From a virus, in the UHGV virus genome UHGV-1369436: a DNA stretch of 38,409 nt. One strand, written 5' to 3'. Position 1 is the stretch's first letter, and every line of letters begins with the position of its first letter. Below the pieces are notes generated by a model that saw nothing but the letters and a program-made list of their open reading frames with translations, made no database searches and was not told the DNA's origin. Both the position numbers and the translations under genes were made by a program. Below, piece by piece: positions 688 through 38,379 of this stretch.

Positions 688-1724
688 GAGATAAAAACCA
701 CCAGGCGGGCTGGACAGGCTACATAAATGCGGATGTACGATATGACAGGCGGCTGACTAATACAGCAAAGATAATAATGGTCGAAATATCAGCCCTTACT
801 AATATGAAGGGCTACGCGTGGTGCACTAATCAGTATCTCGCAGATGCATTTGATCTTTCAAGGTCGCAAGTATCACGTATTATTAGGAAGTTGGCAGAGT
901 GCGGCTACATCAATGTGTACCTTAACCCGGGCGGGGAGCGTTACATCACGATCACCAGCAATGACCGACCAGTACCTAGTGGTTTTAAAAAGGACTACAC
1001 GAAAAAAGCAGAGCCAGAGAACGAGCAAGACGATAAATTACTTAAAGTGGCTACCACTGTTGAAGAGGTTTTGCCAGAAGCAAAACCGATAGACATTAGC
1101 GAGACAGAATTGCGTGAACTTACCACAGCAGAGCAATGCGCCCTACAGACAAAAAATATCGAGGCCGACAACTACGACCGCCGCGGTGAGATTCTTGATA
1201 AGAATCTGTACGACAAGCTCAAGTTGGAGATTATTGCCGAATCAGATGCCACAGCCAAAGCAGAGGAGCAACCAGAGCAAGCTCCGGCAAAGCAAATCGA
1301 GGCCAGCGCACACCATAATGCTACCTCAACAGAGCTAGTAGCAGCATCAAATAACGCGCCAGAACAGCACAATACCCCATACGGTAAACTTGCAACACCC
1401 ATGACAAGTACGCGTAAGAACTATAACCCCGCTGAAAAGGCGTTTTATGACGCAGCAAAAGCCCTTGGGGTAAGTATTGCAAATCATAATCAAGCACGCA
1501 GCTGGGTTAAAGAAGTAGTAAGGACTAGAGGAATTGAGTCAACGGTAAACTACTTTGATTTTATGCGGCTCGTCTTCCCCAAATGGGAATATGAATATAA
1601 ACCAAACATTGACTCCGCACATGACCTTGCGATGAAAGCGGCTAAGATTGAGCAACTTATTCAAAGGCAGCAACGCGAGAATGCTCGTAAAATTAATTAC
1701 GACAATATTGACTTTTACGGCTAG
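678..1724 (+). CDS. Putative replication initiator / replisome organizer with an N-terminal HTH (…GYAWCTNQYLADAFDLSRSQVSRIIRKLAECGYI…).
   Basis: 348-aa ORF. The N-terminal helix-turn-helix resembles phage replication-initiation protein N-termini. The central region is acidic and low-complexity. It lies immediately after the iteron array. Confidence 0.5.
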   Translation: MELGDKNHQAGWTGYINADVRYDRRLTNTAKIIMVEISALTNMKGYAWCTNQYLADAFDLSRSQVSRIIRKLAECGYINVYLNPGGERYITITSNDRPVPSGFKKDYTKKAEPENEQDDKLLKVATTVEEVLPEAKPIDISETELRELTTAEQCALQTKNIEADNYDRRGEILDKNLYDKLKLEIIAESDATAKAEEQPEQAPAKQIEASAHHNATSTELVAASNNAPEQHNTPYGKLATPMTSTRKNYNPAEKAFYDAAKALGVSIANHNQARSWVKEVVRTRGIESTVNYFDFMRLVFPKWEYEYKPNIDSAHDLAMKAAKIEQLIQRQQRENARKINYDNIDFYG

Positions 1725-1736
1725 CAGCCTTACAAT
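1708..1736 (+). promoter_or_regulatory. Early promoter TTGACT-N17-TACAAT followed by the conserved leader AGAAACATAAGCAAAGAGAGGAGAA (1737-1770).
   Basis: Exact hexamers with 17-nt spacing. The leader matches five other copies in the window. Confidence 0.6.
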
Positions 1737-1770
1737 AGAAACATAAGCAAAGAGAGGAGAAAAATGCTTT

Positions 1771-2130
1771 ATGACAAAATATCAAATCACCACCTATGAT
1801 GGAACGGTACATACCATTGAGGGTAATACCCAACAAGAGGTGAAACGTATGGTTGAGTTTTTCAACCTTATGCCAGTAAAGATGGCAGATGGCACAACTG
1901 AAATGTTCGCCAAGGGCGCAGTGCAGCACATGAAAATGGTCAAGGATGATACTACACTCCCGCCAGAGCAACGCCTAGCCATGGGCGATCAGAAAGACAA
2001 CCGCAGCACAGGCCCAGAAGCTGAAGCAGCTAAAGCATGGCGAGAACACTGCGGTCACGACTTTAAGCTCATGGGGGATAAGGAAGCTCGCCAGCAATTC
2101 ATTGATAGCTATATGAGGAGCGACGCCTAA
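1771..2130 (+). CDS. Hypothetical protein (119 aa).
   Basis: ORF with SD AGAGGAGAA upstream. First gene behind the early promoter module. Confidence 0.7.
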   Translation: MTKYQITTYDGTVHTIEGNTQQEVKRMVEFFNLMPVKMADGTTEMFAKGAVQHMKMVKDDTTLPPEQRLAMGDQKDNRSTGPEAEAAKAWREHCGHDFKLMGDKEARQQFIDSYMRSDA

Positions 2131-2288: not shown

Positions 2289-2496
2289 CCCACTAACTCG
2301 CGCTGAGCAACGTCTTGGCGCGAGAGTTGTATCATTAGCCATTCAAGCAAATCCAAGCTTACTTCGCACAATGTATTGTCACAAAAATGATCTAACCCTA
2401 TACCTCTGGCAAGATGACAAATGGATACCAGTTGGCCCTCATCTAAACGTTGTAAAAAAGACTCGAAAAAATCGTAAAAAAGTATTGCAATCGTAA
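2278..2496 (+). CDS. Hypothetical protein (72 aa).
   Basis: ORF track entry. Confidence 0.45.
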   Translation: MKNSPLTRAEQRLGARVVSLAIQANPSLLRTMYCHKNDLTLYLWQDDKWIPVGPHLNVVKKTRKNRKKVLQS

Positions 2497-2513
2497 GCAA
2501 CGAGGTGTATAGT
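2485..2513 (+). promoter_or_regulatory. Early promoter TTGCAA-N17-TATAGT plus conserved leader AGAAACATAACCAAAGGAAAGGAAGGAA.
   Basis: 17-nt spacing. The leader is similar to the other module copies. Confidence 0.5.
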
Positions 2514-2548
2514 AGAAACATAACCAAAGGAAAGGAAGGAACACAACA

Positions 2549-2701
2549 ATGGACAACGTAACTTACAAACTCGAGCAGATGGAAAACGAGGGCATGATCG
2601 AGCAGATGCACCACGACTGGTACGCATTTCGGATCAAGAACAGCTGGGCACGCAACATGAAGGCTCTCTGGCAGCGCTGGTTGATGAGTACAGTAAAATA
2701 A
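2549..2701 (+). CDS. Small hypothetical protein (50 aa).
   Basis: ATG at the end of the conserved leader with a GGAAGGAA SD. Under 60 aa, so absent from the track. Confidence 0.4.
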   Translation: MDNVTYKLEQMENEGMIEQMHHDWYAFRIKNSWARNMKALWQRWLMSTVK

Positions 2702-2751
2702 ACACACGAACACAATCAACAATAATGGTGGGCAGAAAGAGGAGAATAACA

Positions 2752-2931
2752 ATGTTCACTACAGCAATCGAAGGGTTACACGAAACCTACGAATACCGCC
2801 AGGCTAGCGTATTACGAAAACTATGGATGGATTTTATCACTACAGTATTCCTATCTGTACTATTCCTTAGCTTGCTATATTCGGTATATCTAGCTCTATC
2901 AGGACTAGTCTACCTAACAACGGGAGTTTAG
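2752..2931 (+). CDS. Small hydrophobic membrane protein (59 aa).
   Basis: Track ORF 2725..2931. Start moved to ATG 2752, which has AGAGGAG 8 nt upstream. The C-terminus is strongly hydrophobic. Confidence 0.55.
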   Translation: MFTTAIEGLHETYEYRQASVLRKLWMDFITTVFLSVLFLSLLYSVYLALSGLVYLTTGV

Positions 2932-3044
2932 TATGTTAGCAGATATTACATATCAATATCTAGAAAGCGATACAAAGGTAATTGAGGATATTATGGTTTA
3001 CAACGCACGAGAACGGATTATCCAATTAATTTTAGAGGAGAAGG

Positions 3045-3527
3045 ATGGAGAGAATCTATAGAGTGATAGCTATACGTCGCGACGGTGTGTGGCAGTATTG
3101 GGAACCGACACTGAGCCTATTCACATTCAAAGAAATACCAACAAATAGATACTACCAATACACAGAAGCACTCAGGGAATACCGAAGAGCGATAGACGAA
3201 TCAAGCCCTGATGATATATCGTGTGTTTCAATCAACGAGAAGATGGGTACCGATGGCACGTGGCACACACTCAAAGAGCGGCAATTTACCCAGAGTGAGC
3301 GATCAACAGAGTCAATCATGATAGATATTGGTACAGCTAGATTAAGCATGAAGACAACATCAGCAAAACTACGTGAGATTGCAGAATTGTCTAAACTCTC
3401 AAGAGAAACAAGGGAAGAGATTGAGCGTATTAGCAACAAGCTATACAGCCTCTCTCGACTCACATGGAATCTACAGAATAAAGTATTAAAGGAACTAGAG
3501 AATGATATACAAGACACAGAAGACTAA
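3045..3527 (+). CDS. Hypothetical protein (160 aa).
   Basis: ORF with SD GAGGAGAAGG. Confidence 0.65.
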   Translation: MERIYRVIAIRRDGVWQYWEPTLSLFTFKEIPTNRYYQYTEALREYRRAIDESSPDDISCVSINEKMGTDGTWHTLKERQFTQSERSTESIMIDIGTARLSMKTTSAKLREIAELSKLSRETREEIERISNKLYSLSRLTWNLQNKVLKELENDIQDTED

Positions 3528-3813
3528 ACAAGACCTACGAGAATCAGAAGAGACATTACAATTTGTCATGGCTGGTATCAAATGTCACCTTCCTAAAAAC
3601 CCAGCGACTCAAGTTATCCTTGAGCGCATAGAGAAAGACATTCGCCTATACGGAGACATTTGCAACATCGAAGGACGTGTTACAGAGTTTCTAGAGGAGG
3701 TAGGCGAGAATAAGCTCACCATGCTCCAGCGTGATTTTGATAACGTAAAATCAGGCAAAATGAGCTGTAAAGAAATTGCAAATAAAATCCGAAAAGAGTA
3801 TAATGAATGGTAG
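3502..3813 (+). CDS. Hypothetical protein (103 aa).
   Basis: ORF track entry. Overlaps the upstream gene. Confidence 0.55.
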   Translation: MIYKTQKTKQDLRESEETLQFVMAGIKCHLPKNPATQVILERIEKDIRLYGDICNIEGRVTEFLEEVGENKLTMLQRDFDNVKSGKMSCKEIANKIRKEYNEW

Positions 3814-3879
3814 ATGGAGGTAATACTTTCATAGCACATTTTGTAGCAGTGGTGTAGAATCTTTCTAACTACAACTATA

Positions 3880-4068
3880 GTATCTGTGCCTGGTTCCTCC
3901 TTGTTACGTGGTTAGGCACAGACACACAATACCTTTCTTCCCATGGAACAGTTTTCCCAGTTACCCGGCAAGACCACGAGACAACCCTCAACAATAGCAC
4001 GAAATGTGCTGTCTCGGTAACTGTGTTCCATGTAACACCCCACCATCTCCTCGGTGGGGTTTAACTTT
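3880..4068 (+). ncRNA. Candidate structured non-coding RNA or regulatory region ending in an intrinsic terminator.
   Basis: A 320-bp ORF-free gap. It contains a hairpin CTGTGCCT…AGGCACAG (3884-3921). Long-range complementary segments are present: CCATGGAACA at about 3950 with TGTTCCATG at about 4030, and AGCACATTT at about 3834 with AAATGTGCT at about 4008. A local hairpin AGCAC-GAAAT-GTGCT is also present. Confidence 0.25.
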
Positions 4069-4072
4069 GTCT
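4041..4072 (+). terminator. Rho-independent terminator CCCCACC-ATCTCCTC-GGTGGGG followed by TTTAACTTT.
   Basis: 7-bp GC stem, 8-nt loop and a U-rich tail, read directly. Confidence 0.6.
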
Positions 4073-4114
4073 ATACATGTTGTAAATTCTACCTGAGAAA
4101 ATAGCTAAAATCTA

Positions 4115-4143
4115 TTGCATCCCTCAACAATAAGATGTACAAT
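4115..4143 (+). promoter_or_regulatory. Early promoter TTGCAT-N17-TACAAT plus conserved leader ACAAACATAAACATAAGGCAAAGAGGAGAAG.
   Basis: 17-nt spacing. The -10 overlaps the ATG at 4135, which argues for the start at 4180. Confidence 0.55.
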
Positions 4144-4179
4144 ACAAACATAAACATAAGGCAAAGAGGAGAAGCCACA

Positions 4180-4443
4180 ATGTCAATCTACACACACTAC
4201 ACCATTGAAGCCACGACAAGGCTCGGAGAGGTATACGTATGGGATCCGCTCATCAGTGAGTATGAGTGCCAGAACAACCAGGAATCATCTGATATTAGCA
4301 CAGAGGACGAAGCTCTCGATGAATTTGGCTACGCAGTCGCAGCAGCAGACCTAGACGAGTTTATGAAAGTGAGTCTACTCCGTGTCACAGAGCTTAGCAA
4401 CGGCTCATCAGATGTATCAGTAGTAGAGTACAAGAATTTCTAG
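4180..4443 (+). CDS. Hypothetical acidic protein (87 aa).
   Basis: Track ORF 4135..4443. Start reassigned to ATG 4180, which has AGAGGAG 9 nt upstream and lies behind the promoter. Confidence 0.6.
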   Translation: MSIYTHYTIEATTRLGEVYVWDPLISEYECQNNQESSDISTEDEALDEFGYAVAAADLDEFMKVSLLRVTELSNGSSDVSVVEYKNF

Positions 4444-4451
4444 GAGGAGCG

Positions 4452-4676
4452 ATGCAAAACTGGAAAGTAAGAAAGAAACTCTATCAGGAGTCGTGGGAGC
4501 TAAAAGACATGAGGTACCGTCTCAACCTCCTCCGAGAGTTTGTAGACGACAAATACTACATCAACAACGCAACCGAATACCTCGACAAAGCCCTCAGCAA
4601 CATCGAGCTAGCAATGGATAGCAAGCAACTCAAGAAAGCATACGAACCACTAACCAAGCGAGAAAAGGAGAACTAA
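4452..4676 (+). CDS. Hypothetical protein (74 aa).
   Basis: SD AGGAGGAG 5 nt upstream. Confidence 0.65.
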   Translation: MQNWKVRKKLYQESWELKDMRYRLNLLREFVDDKYYINNATEYLDKALSNIELAMDSKQLKKAYEPLTKREKEN

Positions 4677-4678
4677 CA

Positions 4679-4846
4679 ATGTATCTATACACAATCGAGT
4701 ACAAAAGGCTCAGCCGAAGCCAAAAAGAGGAATATAAGACAGTAGCAGAAAATGCTCGTGTCGCACTCCGTAACCTCGAGCGTAATCGATGCAAACCATA
4801 CAGCTACCGTATCATCAACGTAGAGCGTGTAGGAGAGGATGACTAA
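4679..4846 (+). CDS. Small hypothetical protein (55 aa).
   Basis: SD AAGGAGAA upstream. Under 60 aa. Confidence 0.4.
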   Translation: MYLYTIEYKRLSRSQKEEYKTVAENARVALRNLERNRCKPYSYRIINVERVGEDD

Positions 4847-4847
4847 A

Positions 4848-5135
4848 ATGAAACCATACATGATCGTCTACCGCCGTAAAAGCATCAAAGGCACACTATC
4901 CCGCATAGTAAAAGCTAACAACCAAGACGAGGCAATCTACGCCTTAAAGCTGAAGTTCGACCCAGACGGCACAGAGAACCTATCAGTAAAAGATGTGCAT
5001 CTTCTAGATAAAGCACTCTCTGAACCATTCGTCACCCGACACACAGACGCCACCTCAAGCCTCGCTTTACATGATCAAGCCTACCAGCGCTACCGGCTCA
5101 TAAACAGACACCCAGGAAAAGGAGGAATAATCTAA
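4848..5135 (+). CDS. Hypothetical protein (95 aa).
   Basis: Track ORF 4839..5135. ATG 4848 has a better SD (AGGAGAGG). Confidence 0.6.
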   Translation: MKPYMIVYRRKSIKGTLSRIVKANNQDEAIYALKLKFDPDGTENLSVKDVHLLDKALSEPFVTRHTDATSSLALHDQAYQRYRLINRHPGKGGII

Positions 5136-5383
5136 TGTACCACTACCACCTACTCTACAAGCACAACCCTAGTGATAAATGGAGTATCTATACTACTACA
5201 GCATTAGATAATGGTACAGCTATCACTAATCTGCTAAAAGACAAAGAAGCAGTATATGACTATAGGATTATTAAACAAGAAAAGACAGAGAATAACGATA
5301 CCAATATAGCCCACAGTCTATTTAAACTATTCGTTTGGCTCTTTACTATAGCTATGGTGCTGTGGGTAGTACAGCAGAGATAG
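5135..5383 (+). CDS. Hypothetical protein with a C-terminal transmembrane helix (82 aa).
   Basis: SD AAAGGAGGAATAA. TAATG overlap with the upstream gene. Confidence 0.6.
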   Translation: MYHYHLLYKHNPSDKWSIYTTTALDNGTAITNLLKDKEAVYDYRIIKQEKTENNDTNIAHSLFKLFVWLFTIAMVLWVVQQR

Positions 5384-5469
5384 ACACAAACACACAAAAA
5401 CACACACTAGGAGAGGTTTGCGAGGCCTCTCCTCTTGTCATTCATAAGGGAAATGCTTATAATGAGTGC

Positions 5470-5946
5470 ATGGCTAAATCATCTTCTAGCAAGTCTGCAG
5501 ATAAGCTAGGCAGACCAAAAAGGAAATACAACGCTCCACCGGGCATGAATAACAACCCTACTGGCAAGGGCGGTTTTGGCGATAATCCACAAAACGGAGC
5601 GGGTGGTCGCTGGTCAAAAGACACCAGCATCTCGTACTGGTATAACAAGCTAGGCCGTATGACCCTCAAGGAGCTTGAAGAATTTGAGAAAAAGGGCGAT
5701 GAGCTTACTCCGTTCCAAAAGACAGCTCTCGTACGTGTTAAGCGCGCCTACAAGGGAGACTCTGAAGGCTTAGCAGAAGCTAAAGAGGTAGCAGACCGCA
5801 CAGAAGGCAAGGCCAAGCAGGATATATCTATCGACGCCAGCGATGATATGAAAACTATCATGAGAGGCTTTATTATACCAACACTACCAACGGATTGGAT
5901 CGATGAGCAAGTCGCATTGGCCCGTTCTAAACAAAGCAAAGTATGA
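5470..5946 (+). CDS. terS: Terminase small subunit (TerS). The track ORF begins at 5335; the likely start is MAKSSSSKSADKLGRPKRKY.
   Basis: Contains the motif GRPKRKYNAPPGMNNNPTGKGGFGDNPQNGAGGRWSKDT, characteristic of phage small terminase subunits. Lies immediately upstream of TerL. Confidence 0.6.
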   Translation: MAKSSSSKSADKLGRPKRKYNAPPGMNNNPTGKGGFGDNPQNGAGGRWSKDTSISYWYNKLGRMTLKELEEFEKKGDELTPFQKTALVRVKRAYKGDSEGLAEAKEVADRTEGKAKQDISIDASDDMKTIMRGFIIPTLPTDWIDEQVALARSKQSKV

Positions 5947-7560: not shown

Positions 7561-9690
7561 ATGCATGACGAAGACAAAGTATTTAAAGACCCAAGGGTAG
7601 ACGACATAACAACCAGCACTGGTGTGATTGATGAGCGTGATGCCCTATCTATTGATGAAGTAGATGACGCTACGCTTGTACGGCGTTTCAAGTATTGGGT
7701 AAACGACTCAGAAGCTTACTGGAATAGCAGAAGCGGTTTCAACCTACGCAACGTACGGGCACAGAATGAGCGCTACTACCTAGGCAAACAGGACAACGAC
7801 AGGCTTTACTACCACCAGGCAGACTACCGCGATAACCAGCTATTCGTTGGTATTCAAGCTGTTATAGCCTATGTCTCAGCTCGTGACCCAGGGTGTGAGA
7901 TTACTCCAGGTGATGACTCTCCAGCTAGCAAGACGCTCGCAGCACGTCTAGAAAGCGCTGTAGACCTTCACAGCCAGAAGGTACGTCTCTCACGCAAGAT
8001 CAAGGTAGCAGCCAAGAACCTCGCCCTGAAGCGTGTTGGCGTAATCAAGCTCATGTATAACCCATTCAGCAAGGAGATTGAAGCGAGGGCGCTCAACCCA
8101 GAGAAGGTTATTCTTGATCGTAACGCAGAGCTAGATGAGGAGCCACGCTTTATCTGCGAGGTATGTGAGGACACTGTAGATATTCTCATGTCTAAATTCC
8201 CAGAGAAAGAGAAGGAGATTATGAATGAGCTTGGCTTTGTGCGCAAGACCCAGAAGCTCCTCAGCACTGTTGTGGCCTACAACGAGATTTGGTTTACAGA
8301 TACTACCACTGGTGAACCACGTGAGTGTGTCGCTTGGTATTTCAACAACCTTATCTTAGATAAGAAGCTCAGCCCTATGTACGAGTACGACAACAAGGGT
8401 GTTGCTATCTGTAACTACACAGACAAGCCCACCAAGCCGTACGCCTTCTGCAATTACCTGAACGATGGTAGCCATATGATCGACCAAACATCACCTATCG
8501 AGCAGGCCATTCCTCTCCAGAACATCCTCAACCGTCGTGGTCGCCAGATCATTGACAACGCAGACACAGCTAACAGCATTAAGGTGTTCCGTGCCGGAGC
8601 TATCTCAGAGGATGACGCCAAGAAGCTCACAGGCAAGCCTAATCAGTCTGTTGTGCTCGATATTCGTGAGGACGAGCCTCTCAGCAACGCATATGGTGAA
8701 ATTCCAGCCCACTTGCTACCTAACTACGTACTACAAGACAAAGAGGACATTAAGAACAGCATCCACAACATCCTTGGTACGCCTTCTCAGTTCCGTGGCG
8801 ATGACTCGAAGCGTGACGTTGGTACACTCGGTGAAGCACAGATGATGCAGAGCCAAGCCTCTGGCCGGCAGGATGAGATTGTGCGTGAGATTGATAACAT
8901 GCTTGATCGCTACTTTAAGTTGCTCGTTCAGATGATGAAGGTGTACTACAGCAAGAACCACAAAATCTCTGGCCGTGACACTGATGGCAACTTCATCCAT
9001 GTAGAGCTATCTCGTGAGACTATCCCAGACAACGCTGTGATCGCTGTGTCACCAGGTAGCACCGTGAGTATGGACAAGAGCCGACGTGAGAACATCGCAG
9101 TGAAGCTGGCAGAGCTTGGTGTGATTGATCCATACAACCTGTTTAAGGATCTTGGCCTTAAGGACTCTAGTGAGCGTTACGAGAGCCTGGTTAAGTTCAA
9201 GACTGATCCGAACATGCTCGTGGATGAGGTGCGCAGTGAGGTACAAGATGAGGAAGCCTACATTGACTTTGCAGTCATCATGAACGGTTTCGACGCTAAG
9301 CCACGTGATGACGTGACACCGCAGCATATCCTAGCTCACAATAAGCAACTCCAGACAGACAAGTTCCTCATGGCTAACCCGAAGCTCCAGCAGAAGCTCC
9401 TGGCTCACATTGACCAAGAGGTGCTAAGTCTCAGCCAGCGTGAGAAGCTCCAACAAGCTAGCGACCAAGGCCTACTCGTAGACCCAACTATCCCTACAAG
9501 CCCAGAGATTCCAGAGCCTCAGCCACCAATGCCCGTAGACCCCTCTCAGATGCCACCAGAAGCGATGCAAGGCCAGCAGCCACCAGTAGATGGTCAACCC
9601 ATCCCTGAGCAGCCAGCACAGCCTGTAGGTGACCTAGGCGGCGTACAGGATCAAGGCACAAGCGGTATCCTCTCCGGCCTCGGGCTATAG
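7561..9690 (+). CDS. Portal protein with a Pro/Gln-rich C-terminal tail.
   Basis: 709 aa, immediately after TerL. Start set at ATG 7561, which has AGGAG 8 nt upstream (the track begins at 7534). C-terminus reads PEPQPPMPVDPSQMPPEAMQGQQPP. Confidence 0.65.
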   Translation: MHDEDKVFKDPRVDDITTSTGVIDERDALSIDEVDDATLVRRFKYWVNDSEAYWNSRSGFNLRNVRAQNERYYLGKQDNDRLYYHQADYRDNQLFVGIQAVIAYVSARDPGCEITPGDDSPASKTLAARLESAVDLHSQKVRLSRKIKVAAKNLALKRVGVIKLMYNPFSKEIEARALNPEKVILDRNAELDEEPRFICEVCEDTVDILMSKFPEKEKEIMNELGFVRKTQKLLSTVVAYNEIWFTDTTTGEPRECVAWYFNNLILDKKLSPMYEYDNKGVAICNYTDKPTKPYAFCNYLNDGSHMIDQTSPIEQAIPLQNILNRRGRQIIDNADTANSIKVFRAGAISEDDAKKLTGKPNQSVVLDIREDEPLSNAYGEIPAHLLPNYVLQDKEDIKNSIHNILGTPSQFRGDDSKRDVGTLGEAQMMQSQASGRQDEIVREIDNMLDRYFKLLVQMMKVYYSKNHKISGRDTDGNFIHVELSRETIPDNAVIAVSPGSTVSMDKSRRENIAVKLAELGVIDPYNLFKDLGLKDSSERYESLVKFKTDPNMLVDEVRSEVQDEEAYIDFAVIMNGFDAKPRDDVTPQHILAHNKQLQTDKFLMANPKLQQKLLAHIDQEVLSLSQREKLQQASDQGLLVDPTIPTSPEIPEPQPPMPVDPSQMPPEAMQGQQPPVDGQPIPEQPAQPVGDLGGVQDQGTSGILSGLGL

Positions 9691-9695
9691 ACATA

Positions 9696-9747
9696 ACCAC
9701 CTCCATTTAGATATAATCTAGGTATATATCAAACATAATGGAGGTGT
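9696..9747 (+). promoter_or_regulatory. 10-bp perfect inverted repeat CACCTCCATT…AATGGAGGTG. The right arm is the SD/start region of the downstream scaffold gene. The loop contains GATATAATC.
   Basis: Read directly. The left arm mimics the anti-SD sequence. Possible translational occlusion of the scaffold RBS and/or a promoter. Confidence 0.4.
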
Positions 9748-10793
9748 TTACATTGGCATCATCTAACACAGACCTATCAGAGATGGACTTTGACGCGCTG
9801 GTTGAGAAGGCAGAAGCCCAAGACCAGGACGACAAGGAAACGACTGACGAGGTAAAGGAACAACAAGACAACCCTACCACAGAGGAGGAAAAGAACGGTG
9901 AGGGTGAAGACACCACCGAAACGCAAGACGACGAGTCGGAAGAGACTCCAGAGGATGAATCAGACAAAGAAGAATCTGGAGAATCAAAGGAAGAGCCGAA
10001 AACACAAGGCTTATCTGACGAAGAGTTTCTAAAGGAGCTTGAGCGTCGCGGCCTTAAGGTGGCAGAAAACAAAAAGGAAGAGCCCAAAAAAGACGACAAA
10101 CCTCAGCCATGGGAAGAGCGCCCAGATGAGATTGACGAGAAGCTTTGGAACAAGTCCTCACCAGAGGAGAAGTTCATCTACAACAGCCTTGATTACATCA
10201 CTGTGAAGGGCAAGGACGGCGAGGAGCTGTCTATCAAACTGCCCACACAGCTGCCTGACGACTTTGAGTTTGCCAATAAGAAGGCAGAGGCTCAGTTCTA
10301 CAGTGCTATGAGCGCCCAAAGCTCCAAGGCAGAGAAGCTCATGAACAAGATCACCTCTGATCGTGAGCAGACGACCAAGGCAGAGAAGGAAAAGGCAGAG
10401 CTTGATGCTATTATTGCTGATGTGGATCGCCTCCAGGATGATGGTATCGTCCCAAAGATCAAGGCTAAGCCAGGTACAGAGGAATTTAACAGTGATCCTA
10501 GTGTGCAGCTAGTCAACAAGATCCTTGACTTTCGCGATGAGTACAACCGCAAGCACAAGGGTGAGAACATCAGCTCATACACAGCTGGCCTCATCTACAA
10601 GGCTAAGAACCCAAAAGAGTTTGAGACAGAGGACGACAAGCGACGTTCTAGCCAGGACAAATCACGGGAGAAAACTGCTAGCCGTGTAGCAAATAAAACA
10701 ACATCAGCCAATCGCCCAGAGTACAACCATAAGGCTTTTGGGAAGAATGTTAGTCTAACTGACATTGCAGATTACTACGCAGATCAACTATAA
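9738..10793 (+). CDS. Scaffolding protein (highly acidic, E/D/K-rich, helical). Alternative TTG start at 9753.
   Basis: Position directly after the portal. N-terminal 120 aa contain more than 40% D/E. Confidence 0.55.
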   Translation: MEVFTLASSNTDLSEMDFDALVEKAEAQDQDDKETTDEVKEQQDNPTTEEEKNGEGEDTTETQDDESEETPEDESDKEESGESKEEPKTQGLSDEEFLKELERRGLKVAENKKEEPKKDDKPQPWEERPDEIDEKLWNKSSPEEKFIYNSLDYITVKGKDGEELSIKLPTQLPDDFEFANKKAEAQFYSAMSAQSSKAEKLMNKITSDREQTTKAEKEKAELDAIIADVDRLQDDGIVPKIKAKPGTEEFNSDPSVQLVNKILDFRDEYNRKHKGENISSYTAGLIYKAKNPKEFETEDDKRRSSQDKSREKTASRVANKTTSANRPEYNHKAFGKNVSLTDIADYYADQL

Positions 10794-13814: not shown

Positions 13815-13822
13815 ATTAGCGT

Positions 13823-28354: not shown

Positions 28355-28383
28355 TTGACTCTATTCTTTAGATGGTGTACTAT
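28355..28383 (+). promoter_or_regulatory. Promoter TTGACT-N17-TACTAT plus conserved leader AGAGACATAGCAAACATAAGCAAGAGAGGAGATAA.
   Basis: 17-nt spacing. Member of the conserved promoter/leader family. Confidence 0.55.
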
Positions 28384-28425
28384 AGAGACATAGCAAACAT
28401 AAGCAAGAGAGGAGATAATACTTGC

Positions 28426-28689
28426 ATGGCTAAAGAAAGTAAAACTAATAAGAAAAGCCAAGACGTAATCTTTGGGGCAAACGAAGAGATTCGCCGCGCC
28501 GTAGATAAGCTCTATGTAAAAAAGACAAGCGCTATCATGACGGCAGCGATCTTTGCAGTAATGCTCTCGCTGATCGCAGCAGGTGTAGCTTTCGCGGCAG
28601 GCCTCAACACAGGCCGTACACAGGTTGAGAAGTACAACACTATCAAGGTTGTGACGAGCGAAACCGCGGGAAAAGAAAAAGCCCAGTAG
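28426..28689 (+). CDS. Small membrane protein (87 aa, one TM segment).
   Basis: Track ORF 28372..28689. Start reassigned to ATG 28426 behind the promoter, with a GAGAGGAG SD. TM segment IMTAAIFAVMLSLIAAGVAFAAGL. Confidence 0.55.
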   Translation: MAKESKTNKKSQDVIFGANEEIRRAVDKLYVKKTSAIMTAAIFAVMLSLIAAGVAFAAGLNTGRTQVEKYNTIKVVTSETAGKEKAQ

Positions 28690-31072: not shown

Positions 31073-31361
31073 CCAGTAAACCTCCATTTACAGCGTCTAC
31101 AGGGACAAAGATAAACATTTTACTGTCTACTTCAATCTCCTCACTGTCGTTATACTTCGTAAAATATATTTTGTTGCCAAGGAATTTCGAGAGTGTGTCC
31201 TCCTTGTCTGTAGACACACCAGAAGGGTGAATATATACAGCCTTTAGTGTGCCGCTCGTATGACTGCCGTGATCCCCTTGTGAGATAGACAGACTCGAGC
31301 CATATTTGTTAGTTACCTCTACCAGGCAAAACCCTGGCATGACGTGTAACTGTGTGCTCAT
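31065..31361 (-). CDS. GroES-like co-chaperonin (Cpn10 family, 98 aa).
   Basis: Mobile-loop-like SSLSISQGDHGSHTSGTLKAV resembles [22 protein letters not shown]. The C-terminal block …GNKIYFTKYNDSEEIEVDSKMFIFVPVDAV resembles …[35 protein letters not shown]. Lies directly upstream of and overlapping the GroEL-like gene. Confidence 0.6.
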   Translation of the reverse strand: MSTQLHVMPGFCLVEVTNKYGSSLSISQGDHGSHTSGTLKAVYIHPSGVSTDKEDTLSKFLGNKIYFTKYNDSEEIEVDSKMFIFVPVDAVNGGLLDA

Positions 31362-31413
31362 TGTTGTGCTCCTATTTAGTTATTGCTTGTGTATCCATTA
31401 TAGCATTAGGCTA

Positions 31414-31446: not shown

Positions 31447-31462
31447 GTTTGGTGTAGTTATA

Positions 31463-31945: not shown

Positions 31946-31993
31946 AATTGTCTCCTATTATTAAAGATTATACTAGCTTAATACTAACATATA

Positions 31994-32021
31994 AGGAGGG
32001 CTTTTCGCCCCCCTATTTTTT
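31994..32021. terminator. GC hairpin GGAGGGC-TTTT-CGCCCCCC followed by TATTTTTT.
   Basis: Read directly. Separates the VRR-NUC operon from the downstream monocistronic unit. Confidence 0.4.
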
Positions 32022-32032
32022 CTAGTGTTGTT

Positions 32033-32894: not shown

Positions 32895-33063
32895 TAAACT
32901 TCTCCAATTCTTCCTTTTGTATTCTTGCGCTCTCTTTACGTATAAACGCTATCGCTGATTTGAACCCTTGCTTTAGATTTATCTTTAATGCCTCGTCTAT
33001 CATAGCGTTGAGCCGATAGTCAATACGGTCATCAACACCGTCTACATCGTTGGGTGTCATCAC
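32875..33063 (-). CDS. Hypothetical protein (62 aa).
   Basis: ORF track entry. Overlapping in-operon gene. Confidence 0.4.
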   Translation of the reverse strand: MMTPNDVDGVDDRIDYRLNAMIDEALKINLKQGFKSAIAFIRKESARIQKEELEKFNETKQI

Positions 33064-33503: not shown

Positions 33504-33784
33504 TTGTTCTCCTTTCTTTTATAATAATCTACTATTCTAGTACCGTTCATTATCTCTCGACGATCAGGTGGTGTGTCGTTATATAGCTTTACCAACTCTA
33601 GCACAGTGTCTTTGACTAAATCGATCATAAACGCGCCGTTATACACTTTGTACCCTCCGTTCGCTTCATTGATGATGATAGTGCCATCGTGTATATTAGA
33701 GAATATATATGTCTCTCCTGGCCTTAAAATGTCTATTCTATAATTGAGCATTTCAACGGCTTCTTTTAGTTCTCTTTGTTTCAT
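33500..33784 (-). CDS. Hypothetical protein (94 aa).
   Basis: ORF track entry. Confidence 0.5.
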   Translation of the reverse strand: MKQRELKEAVEMLNYRIDILRPGETYIFSNIHDGTIIINEANGGYKVYNGAFMIDLVKDTVLELVKLYNDTPPDRREIMNGTRIVDYYKRKENK

Positions 33785-33975
33785 GACAGCCTCCCTACTT
33801 CATCTACAATTTTTTCTTTTAACATCTCGATCGCTGTGTATACTAGAGTCACGCCACTCTCATCAATCTCGGTAATAGCCGCACGCTTCTCTAGTTCATC
33901 TAGGTCAATCTTGGTGTTTTCAACTATCTCTTGTACTTTGTATTTAGTCAGTAGCATTTTTAACTTCCTTTGCAA
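33781..33975 (-). CDS. Hypothetical protein (64 aa).
   Basis: ORF track entry. Confidence 0.45.
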   Translation of the reverse strand: MQRKLKMLLTKYKVQEIVENTKIDLDELEKRAAITEIDESGVTLVYTAIEMLKEKIVDEVGRLS

Positions 33976-34387
33976 ACGCGGTTACGCCACGCTCTTTTAG
34001 TGAGTCGATAATGTCGTATGCCCTCGCCCCTCTATAGGCCTTGGCGGCCTTTTCGTTAACGGTCGCTGTTATCTCTTTATCGTTGATACGTAAGAGATAT
34101 AGCGCAGCACCTTTGATGCCAATTTTATACAGTGGCTCATCTCGCTTATCTAGTGGTGTTGATGCGTACCTATATAGTGTATCAAGCACGTACTTCCGAT
34201 GGTCTGGCGCTGTATCAGTTGTTACTCTCATGCTATATATCTCATCTACTCGCACACTACCAACACCCCAGCTTCCATCATATACGTTCACAAACGTACC
34301 ATAAGCCTCATTTTGTATGCGCGCTTGAAACCCAGCAGCTGCTAGCTCGTCGATCAACTCTAGTGTTGTTATATAGTTTTCACTCAT
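33944..34387 (-). CDS. Hypothetical protein (147 aa).
   Basis: ORF track entry. Confidence 0.55.
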   Translation of the reverse strand: MSENYITTLELIDELAAAGFQARIQNEAYGTFVNVYDGSWGVGSVRVDEIYSMRVTTDTAPDHRKYVLDTLYRYASTPLDKRDEPLYKIGIKGAALYLLRINDKEITATVNEKAAKAYRGARAYDIIDSLKERGVTAFAKEVKNATD

Positions 34388-34643
34388 ACATCGCCACCTT
34401 TGTTGCTAAGATACCCATACGCTCACGTGGTGTAAGCCCGCCTCGCATACCGTACTCTACATCTCCAGTCATCAGAGCATCTGCTAGGCACTCGCCTTTT
34501 ACTGGACACTCAGCACAAATCTTACGTGCATCGTTGTAGTTGTTGTACCCGTTATACTCATCAGCGTATGCTTTGTTGACCGGGAAAAACGCTTCCGGGT
34601 CTGTCTGTGCGCACAGTGCGCTGCCTCGCCATTTATTCTCCAT
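34380..34643 (-). CDS. whiB: WhiB-like (Wbl) 4-Cys Fe-S transcription factor.
   Basis: ALCAQTDPEAFFP…ARKICAECPVKGECLADAL…GGLTPRER. Compare the WhiB pattern C…DPE.FFP…C..CPV…CL..AL…GvWGG..e.ER. Confidence 0.7.
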   Translation of the reverse strand: MENKWRGSALCAQTDPEAFFPVNKAYADEYNGYNNYNDARKICAECPVKGECLADALMTGDVEYGMRGGLTPRERMGILATKVAMYE

Positions 34644-34874
34644 ATATATACCTCATGCTATGTGTTACTTATATATTCTTTGGCTATATCAAGGACTGCT
34701 TTTACTGAGCGTATTGCCCCAATAGAAGGTTTGAGTATACTTCAGTATAAGTCATCGTTCTCATATTCCAAAAGTCAATTGATAGAATCCTCTGTGTATA
34801 TTAGACTATTTTTTGCTGAGTTTATTTCTCCCTTTAAAATTGCTTTTTCAGCAACCGTCGTGTTACCTCGTCGT

Positions 34875-35096
34875 TTACTCCCCATTGTCTAACCTCCCAA
34901 ATAGTCTATTTTTTATCATTGCAACCGCCCAGTCTGTAGCAGCGGTTGATGGGGTGTCGCGGTTCTTATGTTGCTCCTCCCACATATCGTACTGCGCTTG
35001 GATAATACCCATCTGGATAAGGCCTATAATCTCCTTAGCCTTCATACCGTTGTTGGTTGATTTATCAAGAATTTCTAGAATTTTCTGTTTCATCAA
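34875..35096 (-). CDS. Hypothetical protein (73 aa).
   Basis: ORF track entry. Confidence 0.5.
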   Translation of the reverse strand: MMKQKILEILDKSTNNGMKAKEIIGLIQMGIIQAQYDMWEEQHKNRDTPSTAATDWAVAMIKNRLFGRLDNGE

Positions 35097-35330
35097 TTAA
35101 TCATCCTTGCATGTTACCGCTATTGTGATAAATGAGATTGTCTCAATCGCTTTGCTCACTGTCCATAGAATCATGACTATAGACAATAAACCCCACCAGA
35201 ACCCGCTATCAAACCCTTTTGTGCTGAGTAGCCATGCTGTGAGTACACCTAATACTGTCACATACATGATGCGTGCAAAAGCAACTACAACCATCGCTTT
35301 ATGATAATCGTTATTATTTTGTTGTTCCAT
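35097..35330 (-). CDS. Small membrane protein (two TM segments, 77 aa).
   Basis: Track ORF extends to 35372. Start moved to ATG 35330 because the promoter -10 (35359-35364) lies inside the longer ORF and the conserved leader ends at this ATG. Confidence 0.55.
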   Translation of the reverse strand: MEQQNNNDYHKAMVVVAFARIMYVTVLGVLTAWLLSTKGFDSGFWWGLLSIVMILWTVSKAIETISFITIAVTCKDD

Positions 35331-35358
35331 GAGTTTCTCCTCTCTATTGTTTATGTTT

Positions 35359-35387
35359 CTATTGTAACGCAAGCATTAGCTAAAGTC
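35359..35387 (-). promoter_or_regulatory. Early promoter (- strand) TTGACT-N17-TACAAT plus conserved leader AGAAACATAAACAATAGAGAGGAGAAACTC.
   Basis: Reverse complement read directly. Confidence 0.55.
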
Positions 35388-35404
35388 AACGCTTTTACTC
35401 AACT

Positions 35405-35674
35405 TTATTTATCTCGTAGTCCCCACCGCCTAATATACCGGCCATTCATCTCTAGCCGTGTACTTCGTCCCCATCCAACACACTCAAAGTCTAACGTGCG
35501 GAACACTCCGCCAATAGTATTGTGGTGTAGAAACTTCGGTAGTGGTTTTCTCTTAAGGACGTCCTCGATTGTCACATATTGCTGTGTCTTGAGGAGGCAG
35601 CGAGCCGTAGCCCGCGCTTCCTCTAGCCATTTGATCTTTTCAGCCTTGAACATATCATTTACTGTACGTGCCAT
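35405..35674 (-). CDS. Hypothetical protein (89 aa).
   Basis: ORF track entry. Confidence 0.5.
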   Translation of the reverse strand: MARTVNDMFKAEKIKWLEEARATARCLLKTQQYVTIEDVLKRKPLPKFLHHNTIGGVFRTLDFECVGWGRSTRLEMNGRYIRRWGLRDK

Positions 35675-35688
35675 GTTTATTATCCTTT

Positions 35689-37650
35689 CTAGATATACAG
35701 GCCCTGTAGGCGCTGTAATGATTTTGCTGTTGGGTCGCTATAGAGTAGGTCACCCTTGCCAGTGAGAGCCTCAGCCCCTACCTCGTCTAGGATAATCTTA
35801 CTGTTGAGCGAGTTTGTGACACTAAAAGCGATCTTGGTTGGGATATTCGCCTTAATAAGCCCTGTCACAACGTCTGCTGATGGGCGCTGTGTTGCTAGTA
35901 TGAGGTGTATACCAACCGCCCGTGCTTTCTGCGCTAGTCTAATTATAGACTCCTCAGCAGAAGGCGGCGTGTTATCGTTGACGCGCTTCACGGCGGCTTT
36001 GAGTGCGGCCTTTGTGAGCTTACCACCTGTGAGCGTGACCTCGTCCAGGATAGCATCCTTAAGGCCTTCGTAGTCCACATTCGATAGTGGGTTTTTCTTG
36101 CTCGTCATCATAAGATCAGCAAACTCATCCACTACAACTACGATACGCGGCATCTCTCCTGGGTAGTCTGCAATGTCTCGGACGCGCTTCTCGCGTAGCT
36201 CCTTGTACCGTCTCCCCATCTCCTTTACGAGCCAGTGAAACGTCTCCGCCGCCTCCTTGGGTGAGGTGATAATATCGTTTGCAAGATGATCATCACCCTC
36301 GTACATAGCAAGCTCAACCTCTTTAGGATCGATGAGCACGAGCTTCATTTGCTCCGGTGTGAGCTGCTTCGTGAGACAGTCCAGGATTACGTTTATCATA
36401 ACAGACTTACCTGCGCCGGTCTGACCAGCGATCAAGAGGTGAGGTGTCTTTACAACGTCACAGTAGTGAACTTTACCGAAGGCGTCCATGCCGATAGGGA
36501 ATTTGAACGTGCCAGGATTAAGGCACTCATCTGTAAGAGGAACAACCTTACGATCTTTATTTGGTATTTCGATACCTACAAGGTTTGTACCTGCAATAGG
36601 GGCTTCGATACGTACAGACTCGCTCTCGAGGGCAATAGCAAGGTCGTTAGCCTTGTCTGCGATACGTTTCATACTCACGCCTCGGTTAGGCTGCATCGTG
36701 TACTTGATTACCTGCGGCCCGACGTATGTCTCACCCATCTTACCACCAATGCCAAACTCGATAAGCTTACGGAGGATCTTCTCCTCGTCTGTACCTGTGC
36801 CGTCATCGATGACAACGTTCTGTTGCTCAAAGGTATCAGCTACTCGTACTTGTCGCTTGATCTTGGCGGCGTCAAAGCCTTCTTGCTGGTTGGCGATAAT
36901 GTCCATGCTGTTCGCGCCGTTCATCCGATCGTTCATGTTGGGGAAGAACTTCGACCGGTCATCGTTTACATATTCAAATACGTTTGTGATGATTTTCTTT
37001 GCGATAGGTGCGAAAGCAAGGACAGATTGGCGATCAAAAGCAACGTCACGGCACTGTGGCGAACCATCCCGGTTGATCGTTTTCTTTATTTCTTTAAATA
37101 CTACCTCTGTTACTTTCTGATTATATTCCGCTTCTGCTAATACGAGGTAGATATAAGCTTGCATAAGGTACTTGTAACTCTCCTCGTCATCTGGGCTGTA
37201 AGCAGTAACTGTCTTGTAGTCGATAAGCCGTAGCCCATTGTCGCGCACCACCATGTCGATCACACCAACCATTGGCACGTTAGCGATACTCGCCTCGAGA
37301 CGTTTCTCAACATCTACTACCTCGTCGTAGTGTGGTGCTTCCTCAAAGTATTTATTTACGAGGCGAGTGTAGTCTTGCATCATCTTTTCACGGCTACCCG
37401 TCTTGCCAAAGTCAATCTCAGAGTCGCTTACATAGCTCATCTCCTCTAGGCCGGCCTCAATGGCAGCCTGCACGTCGCCACCGTCCTTACCGTAGAAGGT
37501 CTCCATAGCCTTGTGAAAGCTCGTACCTACTACTAGTGATGGTGTTTTAGGGTTATCGTAGATCTTTGCTATGTAGCGCTTCTGAAACTCAACTTGGTTA
37601 TTCAAGAACGTTACGATCGCTGAATACGACAGGTGGTTAACTCTACTCAT
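35689..37650 (-). CDS. Fusion protein. The N-terminal domain is a Cas4/RecB-like PD-(D/E)XK nuclease. The C-terminal domain is an FtsK/SpoIIIE-family ATPase.
   Basis: N-terminus: LSYSAI…GTSFHKAMETF…GVIDMVVRDNGLRLIDYKT…QAYIYLVL (SxS, GxxxH, D…DYK and QxxxY nuclease motifs). C-terminus: Walker A IAGQTGAGKS, Walker B VVVVDEFADL, and FtsK signature VGIHLILATQRPS. Start at ATG 37650, which has a GGAGAGGAG SD. Confidence 0.7.
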   Translation of the reverse strand: MSRVNHLSYSAIVTFLNNQVEFQKRYIAKIYDNPKTPSLVVGTSFHKAMETFYGKDGGDVQAAIEAGLEEMSYVSDSEIDFGKTGSREKMMQDYTRLVNKYFEEAPHYDEVVDVEKRLEASIANVPMVGVIDMVVRDNGLRLIDYKTVTAYSPDDEESYKYLMQAYIYLVLAEAEYNQKVTEVVFKEIKKTINRDGSPQCRDVAFDRQSVLAFAPIAKKIITNVFEYVNDDRSKFFPNMNDRMNGANSMDIIANQQEGFDAAKIKRQVRVADTFEQQNVVIDDGTGTDEEKILRKLIEFGIGGKMGETYVGPQVIKYTMQPNRGVSMKRIADKANDLAIALESESVRIEAPIAGTNLVGIEIPNKDRKVVPLTDECLNPGTFKFPIGMDAFGKVHYCDVVKTPHLLIAGQTGAGKSVMINVILDCLTKQLTPEQMKLVLIDPKEVELAMYEGDDHLANDIITSPKEAAETFHWLVKEMGRRYKELREKRVRDIADYPGEMPRIVVVVDEFADLMMTSKKNPLSNVDYEGLKDAILDEVTLTGGKLTKAALKAAVKRVNDNTPPSAEESIIRLAQKARAVGIHLILATQRPSADVVTGLIKANIPTKIAFSVTNSLNSKIILDEVGAEALTGKGDLLYSDPTAKSLQRLQGLYI

Positions 37651-38320
37651 CGTCGCTCTCCTCTCCATTATTAGCGTTAGCGGTTAGTTCTTCCTCTACG
37701 TAGATACCTGCAATGTCGAAGCCTGCACGTAGAGCGTTTGCCTCAGCACACTTAGTGAGCATCACTATAGGCATGGTTTTCCAGTTGCTTATCGGCTGAC
37801 CTTCACGGTTAGTGCGTACAAACTCATCGTAGTAGGCTGTATATCGTGTAACCTCGATTGGCGTACTCGTGTTGTCCCAGCGGCCAAATACAGGCACCGT
37901 GACGCTCAGGAGCTTATCGCCATCTTTCTTAACTTCTGCTGCACCTGTGTGAGTGTACACGCCACCCTTCCGCGCTAGCTTACGCAAACCGTGGATACTC
38001 ACGATTGGCATTAGCTCCTCGCCCCGTCGGTTCGAGTCCCAGATATATGTAGCGTAAATCTCCTTTTTAAACGGGTTCAGGCCGTACTGGTTGGCGATAG
38101 CCATAAATACCCGTAAGTCACCGATTGGACGCATCTCGCCCGTCTTGGTGAGCCCTAGGACGCTTTTATGCAAGGTGGCGATCAAGCTCAGCGTCTGCTT
38201 TTCATTCTCAGCGTTGCTGATCATACCCTTAGCGAGTGGGACGACAGGCTCATACTGGTTTTTCAGCGCAAGCTGCATAGCCCTCTTCTCGTCACGTTTT
38301 GTAATTTCTTGCTGTGTCAT
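37643..38320 (-). CDS. recT: RecT-family single-strand annealing protein.
   Basis: C-terminal MLTKCAEANALRAGFDIAGIYVEEE matches the RecT signature. Start at ATG 38320 behind the conserved leader (the track extends to 38362). Confidence 0.65.
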   Translation of the reverse strand: MTQQEITKRDEKRAMQLALKNQYEPVVPLAKGMISNAENEKQTLSLIATLHKSVLGLTKTGEMRPIGDLRVFMAIANQYGLNPFKKEIYATYIWDSNRRGEELMPIVSIHGLRKLARKGGVYTHTGAAEVKKDGDKLLSVTVPVFGRWDNTSTPIEVTRYTAYYDEFVRTNREGQPISNWKTMPIVMLTKCAEANALRAGFDIAGIYVEEELTANANNGEESDDE

Positions 38321-38350
38321 GCAAGTTCTCCTCTCTTTGCTTATGATTCT

Positions 38351-38379
38351 ATTGTAGCTCATATGGCAAGCAAAAGCAA
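38351..38379 (-). promoter_or_regulatory. Early promoter (- strand) TTGCTT-N17-TACAAT plus conserved leader AGAATCATAAGCAAAGAGAGGAGAACTTGC.
   Basis: Reverse complement read directly. Confidence 0.55.

Follow-up and report, generated by a model that had tools for sequence, protein, structure and literature searches.

The early promoters of bacteriophage T5, among them PN25, P25, P26 and P28, are the closest described parallel to the DNA considered here; in both cases many copies of a host sigma-70 promoter are carried by one phage genome. We read the T5 layout from AY587007.1, in which a 40-kb segment has 17 annotated early promoters ('putative early promoter T5P22-38', 'repeat b/c'). They consist of an A/T block, TTGCT, 17 nucleotides (nt), TATAAT and a GA-rich Shine-Dalgarno sequence (SD), and in 8 of the 17 the -10 box is followed by five nt and then YATAA. 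The PN25 sequence matched T5 at 100%, at a place annotated 'promoter' and 'repeat c copy 6', and its transcript presumably starts at the A of CATAAA. T7 A1 has an AU start and a purine-rich initial transcribed sequence of the GAGAGG type, and the PeSL mobile cassettes of T4-type phages are repeated early-promoter units between gene modules. Transcription from PN25 is limited at promoter escape, and replacing +3 to +20 of N25 cuts full-length RNA about 10-fold, while facile escape was reported for T7 A1 (PMC12464699). Escape is favoured by an initial transcribed sequence that is purine-rich on the non-template strand, and by GG/GA dinucleotides (PMC12464699; PMC5961368). Here we analyzed six copies of a cassette in the 38,409-bp virus genome UHGV-1369436, which we call the window, meaning the whole stretch of DNA analyzed. 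We suggest, with a probability of roughly 0.6, that the cassette is a strong sigma-70-type unit of promoter, initiator and ribosome-binding site (RBS) of the known, T5-like kind rather than a new RNA element.

The six cassettes share their parts in one order: A-tract, -35 hexamer, 17-nt spacer, -10 hexamer, AGAAAC-type discriminator, ATAA(G/A/C)CAA, a GA-rich SD of the AGAGAGGAG type, and ATG. A preliminary description of this DNA had listed six such sites on both strands, and all six were found as described, with a single correction of 2 nt: the fifth -35 begins at 35389, not 35387. The -35 hexamers thus start at 1708, 2485, 4115 and 28355 on the plus strand and at 35389 and 38379 on the minus strand.

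1708..1773, plus strand: cassette 1, promoter and start site; -35 TTGACT at 1708-1713, -10 TACAAT at 1731-1736, discriminator AGAAAC at 1737-1742, predicted transcription start site (TSS) A1743.
Cassette 1 continued, plus strand: RBS and gene; extended SD AGAGAGGAG at 1751-1759, ATG at 1771; heads small open reading frames (ORFs) at 1771-2496.
2485..2551, plus strand: cassette 2; -35 TTGCAA, TG-extended -10 TATAGT at 2508-2513, AGAAAC, predicted TSS A2520, SD AAAGGAAAGGAAGGAA, ATG at 2549.
4115..4182, plus strand: cassette 3, promoter; -35 TTGCAT, TG-extended -10 TACAAT at 4138-4143, ACAAAC, predicted TSS A4150.
Cassette 3 continued, plus strand: leader; ATAA, then a second ACATAAG copy, SD AAAGAGGAG, ATG at 4180.
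28355..28428, plus strand: cassette 4, promoter; -35 TTGACT, TG-extended -10 TACTAT at 28378-28383, AGAGAC, predicted TSS A28390.
Cassette 4 continued, plus strand: leader; ATAGCAA, then a second ACATAAGCAA copy, SD GAGAGGAG, ATG at 28426.
35328..35389, minus strand: cassette 5; -35 TTGACT at 35389-35384, -10 TACAAT at 35366-35361, AGAAAC, predicted TSS A35354, SD AGAGAGGAG, ATG at 35330.
38318..38379, minus strand: cassette 6; -35 TTGCTT at 38379-38374, -10 TACAAT at 38356-38351, AGAATC, predicted TSS A38344, SD AGAGAGGAG, ATG at 38320.

All six -35 hexamers begin with TTG (TTGACT or TTGC(A/T)(A/T)), and all six -10 boxes have the form TAnnnT (TACAAT, TATAGT or TACTAT), three of them being TG-extended. 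The spacers are exactly 17 nt long in every cassette and unrelated in sequence. An A-tract lies directly upstream of the -35 in five of the six copies, and cassette 2 has phased A-tracts upstream. The -10 is followed by AGAAAC, AGAATC, ACAAAC or AGAGAC and then by ATAA(G/A/C)CAA (ATAGCAA at 28355), and the layout -10-N5-CATA(A/G) is present in all six. Every cassette therefore has the features by which a primary-sigma promoter is recognized, namely a TTGACA-like -35 and a TATAAT-like -10 at a distance of 17 +/- 1 nt.

The T5 early promoters and the cassettes have in common the upstream A/T block (near -43 in the T5 type), a -35 of the TTGC(T/A) type, the 17-nt spacer, -10-N5-YATAA, a transcript that starts (in the cassettes, by prediction) with A, and a purine- or GA-rich initial transcribed sequence in which the first gene's SD lies. 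Over the stretch from the -10 to the SD, PN25 (TATAAT AGATTC ATAAATTTGAGAGAGGAG) and cassette 6 (TACAAT AGAATC ATAAGCAAAGAGAGGAG) agree at about 24 of 31 positions. T5, however, is a 121 kb Demerecviridae phage of E. coli, and neither it nor its host is related to the phage and host considered here; its copies are also far more diverse downstream of +5, whereas the block is nearly identical among the copies in the window. The parallel is thus one of architecture and not of a shared motif or descent, and is probably convergent. Other known systems resemble the cassettes in fewer respects. T7 A1 and the T4 early promoters, likened here by description, are near-consensus promoters with conservation beyond the hexamers, but the GA-rich initial sequence of T7 A1 is not the SD of its first gene. 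Cassettes 3 and 4 and a degenerate relative at 31402 directly follow a hairpin or terminator, as PeSL units do, although the conserved part here lies downstream of the -10 and not in a flanking stem-loop. Structured cis-regulatory leaders such as riboswitches, thermometers and ribosomal-protein leaders also place a conserved 5' untranslated region (UTR) before the first cistron; unlike them, the cassette UTR is 24-36 nt long and unstructured, and has neither covariation nor an Rfam match.

We asked how far the six copies stand out from the rest of the window. A matrix of the -10 and the next 14 nt (20 nt in all) was built on the six cassettes and run against 200 shuffles. The cassettes scored 22.5-29.8 bits; no other site in the window exceeded 17.2, and the shuffles reached 18.9 at best (mean 13.4). 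Matches to the exact 25-mer with at most three mismatches numbered two in the window versus none in 100 shuffles. Pairs of sigma-70 hexamers alone were not enriched (30 versus 26.5 expected, and 31 versus 25.1), so the signal lies in the downstream block that the copies share and in their position between genes.

Conservation was measured in orthologous groups from about 20 relatives in IMG/VR, which are cited here by handles beginning with L. Inside these groups the diversity per column was near zero from the discriminator through the SD, and the -35 and -10 were kept, whereas variation was seen in the spacers, upstream of the -35 and at third codon positions. For example, cassette 1 in L007 and L010 has a different spacer and a strongly diverged downstream gene but retains TTGA, TACA(A/C)T and AGAAACATAAGCA..AGAGAGGAG. 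The changes that were tolerated are A or T at discriminator position 5, G, A or C after ATAA, and one A more or less in the A-run before the SD. The claim that conservation extends well past the SD was therefore borne out: the leader is invariant among relatives while its surroundings vary, and is under purifying selection. Nor is the motif a plain SD consensus, since about 50 other genes of the window use AAAGGAG(A/G), whereas the cassettes share (A)GAGAGGAG(A)A together with the upstream block. Taken together, these data confirm that the cassettes are real multi-copy promoter/initiator/RBS units under selection. As a separate observation, the spacer of cassette 3 (4121-4137) is almost wholly rewritten and C-rich in L007, L010, L017 and L040, whereas both noncoding flanks are about 100% identical.

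Next, we considered more divergent members of the clade, whose terminases are 38-66% identical. Their promoters keep the same layout as the cassettes, as in the following examples, each given from the -10 onwards.

L121 promoter: TAAGAT AGAAC CATAAGCAATTAAAACGCAAGAAAGGA
L115 promoter: TATACT TAAAC CATAAGCAAAGCAAGAAAGGA
L117 promoter: TACAAT AGAGA CATAGGG...GAGAAAGGAG
L085 promoter: TATAAT TAAAG CATAAGATAAGAAAGGA
L001 promoter: TACAAT GGGAG CATAACATAAAAGAAAGGG

Offsets were counted over 829 kb of divergent loci, which contain 1,734 distinct hexamer-pair sites. Here CATAA occurred exactly 5 nt after the -10 in 19 cases, versus about 1-6 at other offsets, and TATAA in 17 cases at the same offset; control pentamers gave a flat profile. 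Secondary peaks of CATAA were seen at 11 and 15. The distance from the motif to the SD varied from about 8 to 30 nt over the clade. That the motif is locked to the -10 while its distance to the SD is variable suggests a start-site signal in the DNA that is anchored on the -10. Two parts seem to fit the conserved block better than one RNA motif does: an initiator anchored on the -10, Y(-1)A(+1)UAA, after an A-rich discriminator, and a separate extended SD. In the lineage of the window the two abut, and so look like a single 25-nt element.

A different promoter in the same genome serves as a ruler for the start site.

5435..5472, plus strand: leaderless promoter of the packaging operon, a contrast class; TTGTCA-17-TATAAT, exactly N6, ATG at 5470; follows terminator 5409-5433.

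Translation from ATG 5470 gives a TerS-like ORF of 158 amino acids (aa), not the 203-aa ORF that begins with TTG at 5335. The leaderless arrangement is kept, with a variable N6, in the close relatives L049-L071, L102, L107 and L109, and it recurs in the divergent L117, L119, L121, L123 and L124. A histogram of the offset from the -10 to ATG has a peak of 34 at 6 nt, versus about 10 elsewhere. Because a leaderless mRNA must begin at its AUG, the host polymerase would start at the 7th nt after the -10, and by this rule the start in the cassettes is the A that follows the C in CATAA. The predicted starts are accordingly 1743, 2520, 4150 and 28390 on the plus strand and 35354(-) and 38344(-) on the minus strand. 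The predicted 5' UTRs are 24-36 nt long, and the first 20 nt (+1 to +20) contain 15-18 purines, versus 11.2 +/- 2.3 in background sense-strand 20-mers, of which 0.75% have at least 17. A second possible leaderless case was noticed at 13785-13825 (TTGACC-18-TATAAT, 8 nt, ATG 13823).

These results can be put together as follows for a cassette of the T5-like kind. The host primary-sigma RNA polymerase would read each cassette as a compact expression unit. The proximal A-tract may act in an UP-like manner, followed by the -35, a 17-nt spacer of free sequence and the -10, and transcription would start, after an A-rich 6-nt discriminator (AGAAAC), at the A of CATAA. Discriminator, start site and initial transcribed region would together determine where transcription starts and ensure that polymerase escapes efficiently. 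The initial transcribed sequence, rich in purines and unstructured, would run into the extended SD AGAGAGGAG, so that one GA-rich stretch may double as a strong and accessible ribosome-binding site; the distance from the 5' end to the first start codon would be 24-36 nt. We infer both the use of the cassettes by host RNA polymerase and their effects on escape and translation. The SD consensus over the clade is AAGAAAGGAG, which would be a perfect complement of the rRNA 3' tail if this is, as assumed, ...CUCCUUUCUU. Similarly, AGAGAGGAG could pair with an assumed 16S tail of ...CUCCUUUCU with one G-U pair.

The leader is unchanged in relatives in which a different winged-helix gene replaces 319-687 (junctions 301/700), and the motif persists in clade members whose promoter spacers bear different, genome-specific motifs. 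Constancy of the leader in spite of a swapped regulator and differing spacer motifs suggests that it is read by conserved host machinery and not by a phage-specific regulator. The spacer motifs are shared among the promoters of one genome (ATGCGCTCGTG in L001; GCTTATGG in L115, L117 and L121), and, judged by this pattern, they are likely operators.

We then looked for structure in the leader RNA, or for a partner of it. RNAfold on the six leaders with about 30 nt of coding sequence gave minimum free energies (MFE) of -0.7 to -6.6 kcal/mol with z-scores of -1.9 to +1.65, none significantly unlike shuffles, and RNAalifold on 14 distinct leader variants returned no pairs, and thus neither conserved structure nor covariation. 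An Rfam scan of the window gave no match at the gathering threshold. A genome-wide search for sequences that could pair with the leader found only the antisense strands of the cassettes themselves. A stem of 3-5 bp flanking the SD can be drawn by eye in four of the six copies; it was rejected, as neither the z-scores nor RNAalifold support it. Thus, when the copies are aligned, as the preliminary description had proposed, a matrix separates the cassettes from the rest, but there are no covarying pairs that would speak for an RNA element. Its term 'regulatory leader RNA element' is apt in so far as conservation past the SD is selected; a discrete element does not emerge from leaders that have no structure, Rfam match or standout antisense partner.

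Two candidate structured non-coding RNAs (ncRNAs) were noticed elsewhere in the window. The first, of about 260 nt (3811-4070, or 3776-4070 with its promoter, plus strand), follows TTGCAA-17-TATAAT at 3776-3804 and ends in the terminator at 4037-4060. It has an MFE of -82.8 kcal/mol (z -4.5) and no Rfam match, and its loops and linkers show CU-rich, anti-SD-like stretches, UUCCUCCUUGUUA, CCUUUCUUCCC and AUCUCCUC. Over the part that was compared with relatives, about 3965-4110, conservation in L007, L010 and L017 is close to 100%. The second candidate, of about 170 nt (14144-14348, plus strand), follows TTGCCT-17-TATAAT and has a strong terminator at 14305-14345; its MFE is -72.3 kcal/mol (z -6.0), and it contains no ORF and matches no Rfam family.

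Several observations weigh against the T5-like reading. The 6-nt discriminator of the leaderless packaging promoter is free among close relatives (mean pairwise difference 0.31; nine variants in 17 sequences), unlike that of the cassettes, which is almost invariant inside orthologous groups. Such invariance is therefore not demanded by basic promoter function, and there is room for a bound factor or for tuning of open-complex lifetime. Cassettes 3 and 4, like L001, L087 and L100, carry a second (A)CATAA copy adjoining the SD, and three of the four L001 promoters have the motif at 11-12 nt from the -10 instead of 5, which hints at an additional, SD-linked role at the RNA level. The window matrix does not pick out the T5 promoters, PN25 scoring 9.9 bits against a shuffle maximum of 20.6. 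Moreover, the start sites and the promoter activity of the cassettes are deduced from sequence, and the host is itself a prediction. Some of these points favour the idea, in essence that of the preliminary description, that ACAUAA(G)CAA in the mRNA (the leader segment ACAUAAGCAA) is a linear recognition site by which translation or stability of the first cistron is co-ordinately controlled. Its candidate partners are a factor associated with the ribosome or an S1-type enhancer, an RNase, an RNA-binding protein of the phage, or a CU-rich phage small RNA. The second ACATAA keeps a constant distance from the SD, besides +5 there are offset peaks at +11 and +15, and the leader is constrained beyond the apparent need of a promoter when judged against the leaderless one. 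The duplex energies of ncRNA 3811-4070 with the leaders are also in the top 1% or so genome-wide, and for cassette 2 in the top 0.04%. But this ncRNA, for all its CU-rich, anti-SD-like loops, pairs with the generic GA-rich SD and not with ACAUAA, and is not exceptional; conserved structure, covariation and an Rfam family are lacking; the most frequent and best-defined placement of the motif follows the -10 and not the SD; and the A-run before the SD changes by one nt either way among close relatives, while the distance from motif to SD varies by more than 20 nt over the clade. We consider a linear RNA site of this kind, whatever its partner, to be unlikely.

The bound factor might instead act on DNA, with the region from -6 to about +12 being an operator through which a phage or host factor turns all the cassettes off or on together without affecting the leaderless class. 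One genome does contain two classes of promoter that differ downstream, the discriminator being fixed in the cassettes and variable in the leaderless class, and the site overlaps +1, a classic position for a repressor. However, it has no dyad symmetry or operator-type repeats, the motif is kept across genomes with different regulator genes, the likely operators lie in the -35/-10 spacer (ATGCGCTCGTG, GCTTATGG) and not in the leader, and T5 has the same layout without a known operator role; we hold an operator here to be decidedly improbable. A broader version is that the clade runs a two-class code, in which class 1 consists of the -10, AGAAN, one or two copies of CATAA with the start after the C, and the SD, class 2 is leaderless, and the invariant AGAAACAUAA is the handle for a factor that switches class 1. 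A protein acting on DNA or on the RNA 5' end, sensing of the initiating nucleotide, or the CU-rich ncRNA 3811-4070 could each be that factor. We put this forward as a speculation that is rather doubtful as it stands; if true, it would give temporal control to a phage without a polymerase or sigma factor of its own. Finally, the similarity of the copies could be historical, the cassette being a recently duplicated, gene-converted or mobile (PeSL-like) unit that does no more than an ordinary promoter with its SD. The leader variant of cassettes 1 and 6 is found in some orthologues of cassette 5, suggesting exchange between copies, one mosaic junction (in L012) falls right after the leader of cassette 1, and cassettes 3 and 4 and the 31402(-) relative each come immediately after a terminator hairpin. 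Yet the leader is invariant in each orthologous group while neighbouring non-coding DNA diverges, the start-site motif persists where proteins are 38-60% identical and the DNA is unalignable, and most mosaic junctions (301/700, 3045/3501, 4842/5024 and 34643/34866, from a comparison of seven relatives over part of the genome) lie away from the cassettes. A purely historical cause is very improbable.

The cassettes also bear on where the genes begin. The preliminary description had moved four start codons, to 4180, 28426, 35330 and 38320, and these hold: the first-ATG starts of the ORFs (4135, 28372, 35372 and 38362) fall inside the promoters, and the four SD-positioned ATGs are kept in relatives. 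The start at 1771 of cassette 1 is confirmed by N-terminal homology (MTKYQ.../MQKYQ...) in L010 and L007. An out-of-frame ATG at 1764 (1764-1799), which opens an 11-codon mini-ORF and has a better SD spacing than the true start, is kept in L009, L016 and L017; it could be a small upstream ORF or a decoy start.

Two further sites show some likeness to the family.

31359..31404, minus strand: degenerate family member; extended -10 TGcTATAAT at 31402-31397 without a -35, directly after a terminator; leader GGATACACAAGCAA..TAGGAG, ATG at 31361.
9688..9755, plus strand: tentative relative; TAGACA-18-TATAAT, 15 nt, then ACATAAtGGAGG (ACATAA-tGGAGGtg), TTG at 9753.

The degenerate member scores 17.2 bits, is kept in all close relatives and heads an operon that contains GroEL. 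A site at 181 had been called a weaker relative of the cassettes; it may plausibly act as a promoter (TTGATT-17-TATTAT, TG-extended), but its downstream sequence, at below 10.2 bits, does not score with the family. The 110-nt leader of this promoter (181-318, plus strand) contains a long hairpin (MFE -34.3 kcal/mol, z -1.9); it is conserved to about 301, just before an exchangeable regulator gene, and may be an autoregulatory leader. Three perfect tandem copies of a 22-bp unit, GTATGCGCACGGGTGCGTAGGG, occupy 13-77, between the divergent promoters 38379(-) and 181(+). This region is replaced in relatives together with the adjacent winged-helix gene 319-687, with junctions near 301 and 700, and the unit resembles ATGCGCTCGTG, the motif that TM7 phage MG269973 (L001) has within the -35/-10 spacers of four of its promoters. 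The repeats could be iterons, or operators with a cognate exchangeable regulator.

The window, with 47.7% G+C, is essentially the complete genome of an uncultured oral phage of about 38 kb. Rightward genes (about 1-29,090) include those for a DnaD-like replication initiator, terminase, portal, amidase and major head protein, and leftward genes (29,094-38,320) those for a GroEL-like chaperonin, an exonuclease/FtsK-like protein and a RecT-like annealing protein; a tRNA scan of the window found no tRNA. The two end sequences of the window are contiguous in relatives, and L010 has all six cassettes in the expected circular order, suggesting that the window is a cut circle or a permuted genome. No near-identical DNA was found among GenBank phages. 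The closest record by protein is TM7 phage DolZOral124_53_65 (head protein 53% and terminase 61% identical). The close relatives in IMG/VR are 38-40 kb long, with 72-95% nucleotide identity around the cassette sites, and in a wider clade of 36-40 kb genomes terminase identity is 57-66%, 48% and 38-41%. The cassette was not found in an unrelated phage of about 40 kb with the same endolysin cell-wall-binding domain, nor in MW202566, a more distant relative.

A published clade comprises 344 predicted Saccharibacteria phages that average 35.5 kb and are highly prevalent in oral metagenomes (PMC9160773). The phage of the window fits this clade and may belong to it, and Saccharibacteria are its predicted host. 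The endolysin and GroEL homologues included no named cellular relatives that point to a host. A scan of genome contigs for the leader found only a phage-like 37.9 kb contig in an 'Atopobium' metagenome-assembled genome (MAG) and chance matches, suggesting that host genes do not carry the exact leader. That relative, L040 (CAUUHE010000012.1, 37,876 bp), is complete and is deposited inside an 'uncultured Atopobium sp.' MAG. It is the sole association with a cellular genome that was found and conflicts with the prediction of a Saccharibacteria host, but is probably a binning artefact. The lineage of the GroEL-like chaperonin (29594-31087, minus strand) is almost confined to phage contigs of 36-40 kb, with 44-55% identity inside the clade and only about 30% to cellular GroEL, which makes it a hallmark gene of this phage group.

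Terminators and promoters split the genome into units, in which the cassettes head six short non-structural operons: 1771-2496, 2549-3813, 4180-5383, 28426-29063, a leftward one from 35330 with small ORFs, and a leftward one from 38320 with the RecT-like and exonuclease/FtsK-like genes. Cassette 3 follows the terminator at 4037-4060 and its operon ends at that at 5409-5433; cassette 4 follows the terminator at 28303-28326. The packaging operon begins at the separate leaderless promoter 5435. Early expression, as the preliminary description had it, is plausible for most cassettes, because they head recombination genes and clusters of small ORFs and the packaging operon has a different promoter. 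For cassette 28355 the label is questionable, since its operon encodes a membrane protein and an SLT_3 lysozyme-like protein.

Our literature searches found no promoter, transcription start or ribosome-binding signal mapped in phages of Saccharibacteria or Patescibacteria, and genetic tools for Saccharibacteria are only starting to emerge (PMC10633639). A 65-bp cassette that stays intact across a highly prevalent clade of oral phages is thus a candidate for a strong and compact expression signal. It yields a precise prediction for the start site of the host polymerase, the 7th nt after the -10, at the step from C to A. It also corrects four gene starts, and with the leaderless promoter of the packaging operon it marks out the genome's transcription units. 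That its layout matches T5 PN25 so closely suggests a general, convergent design of strong phage promoters.

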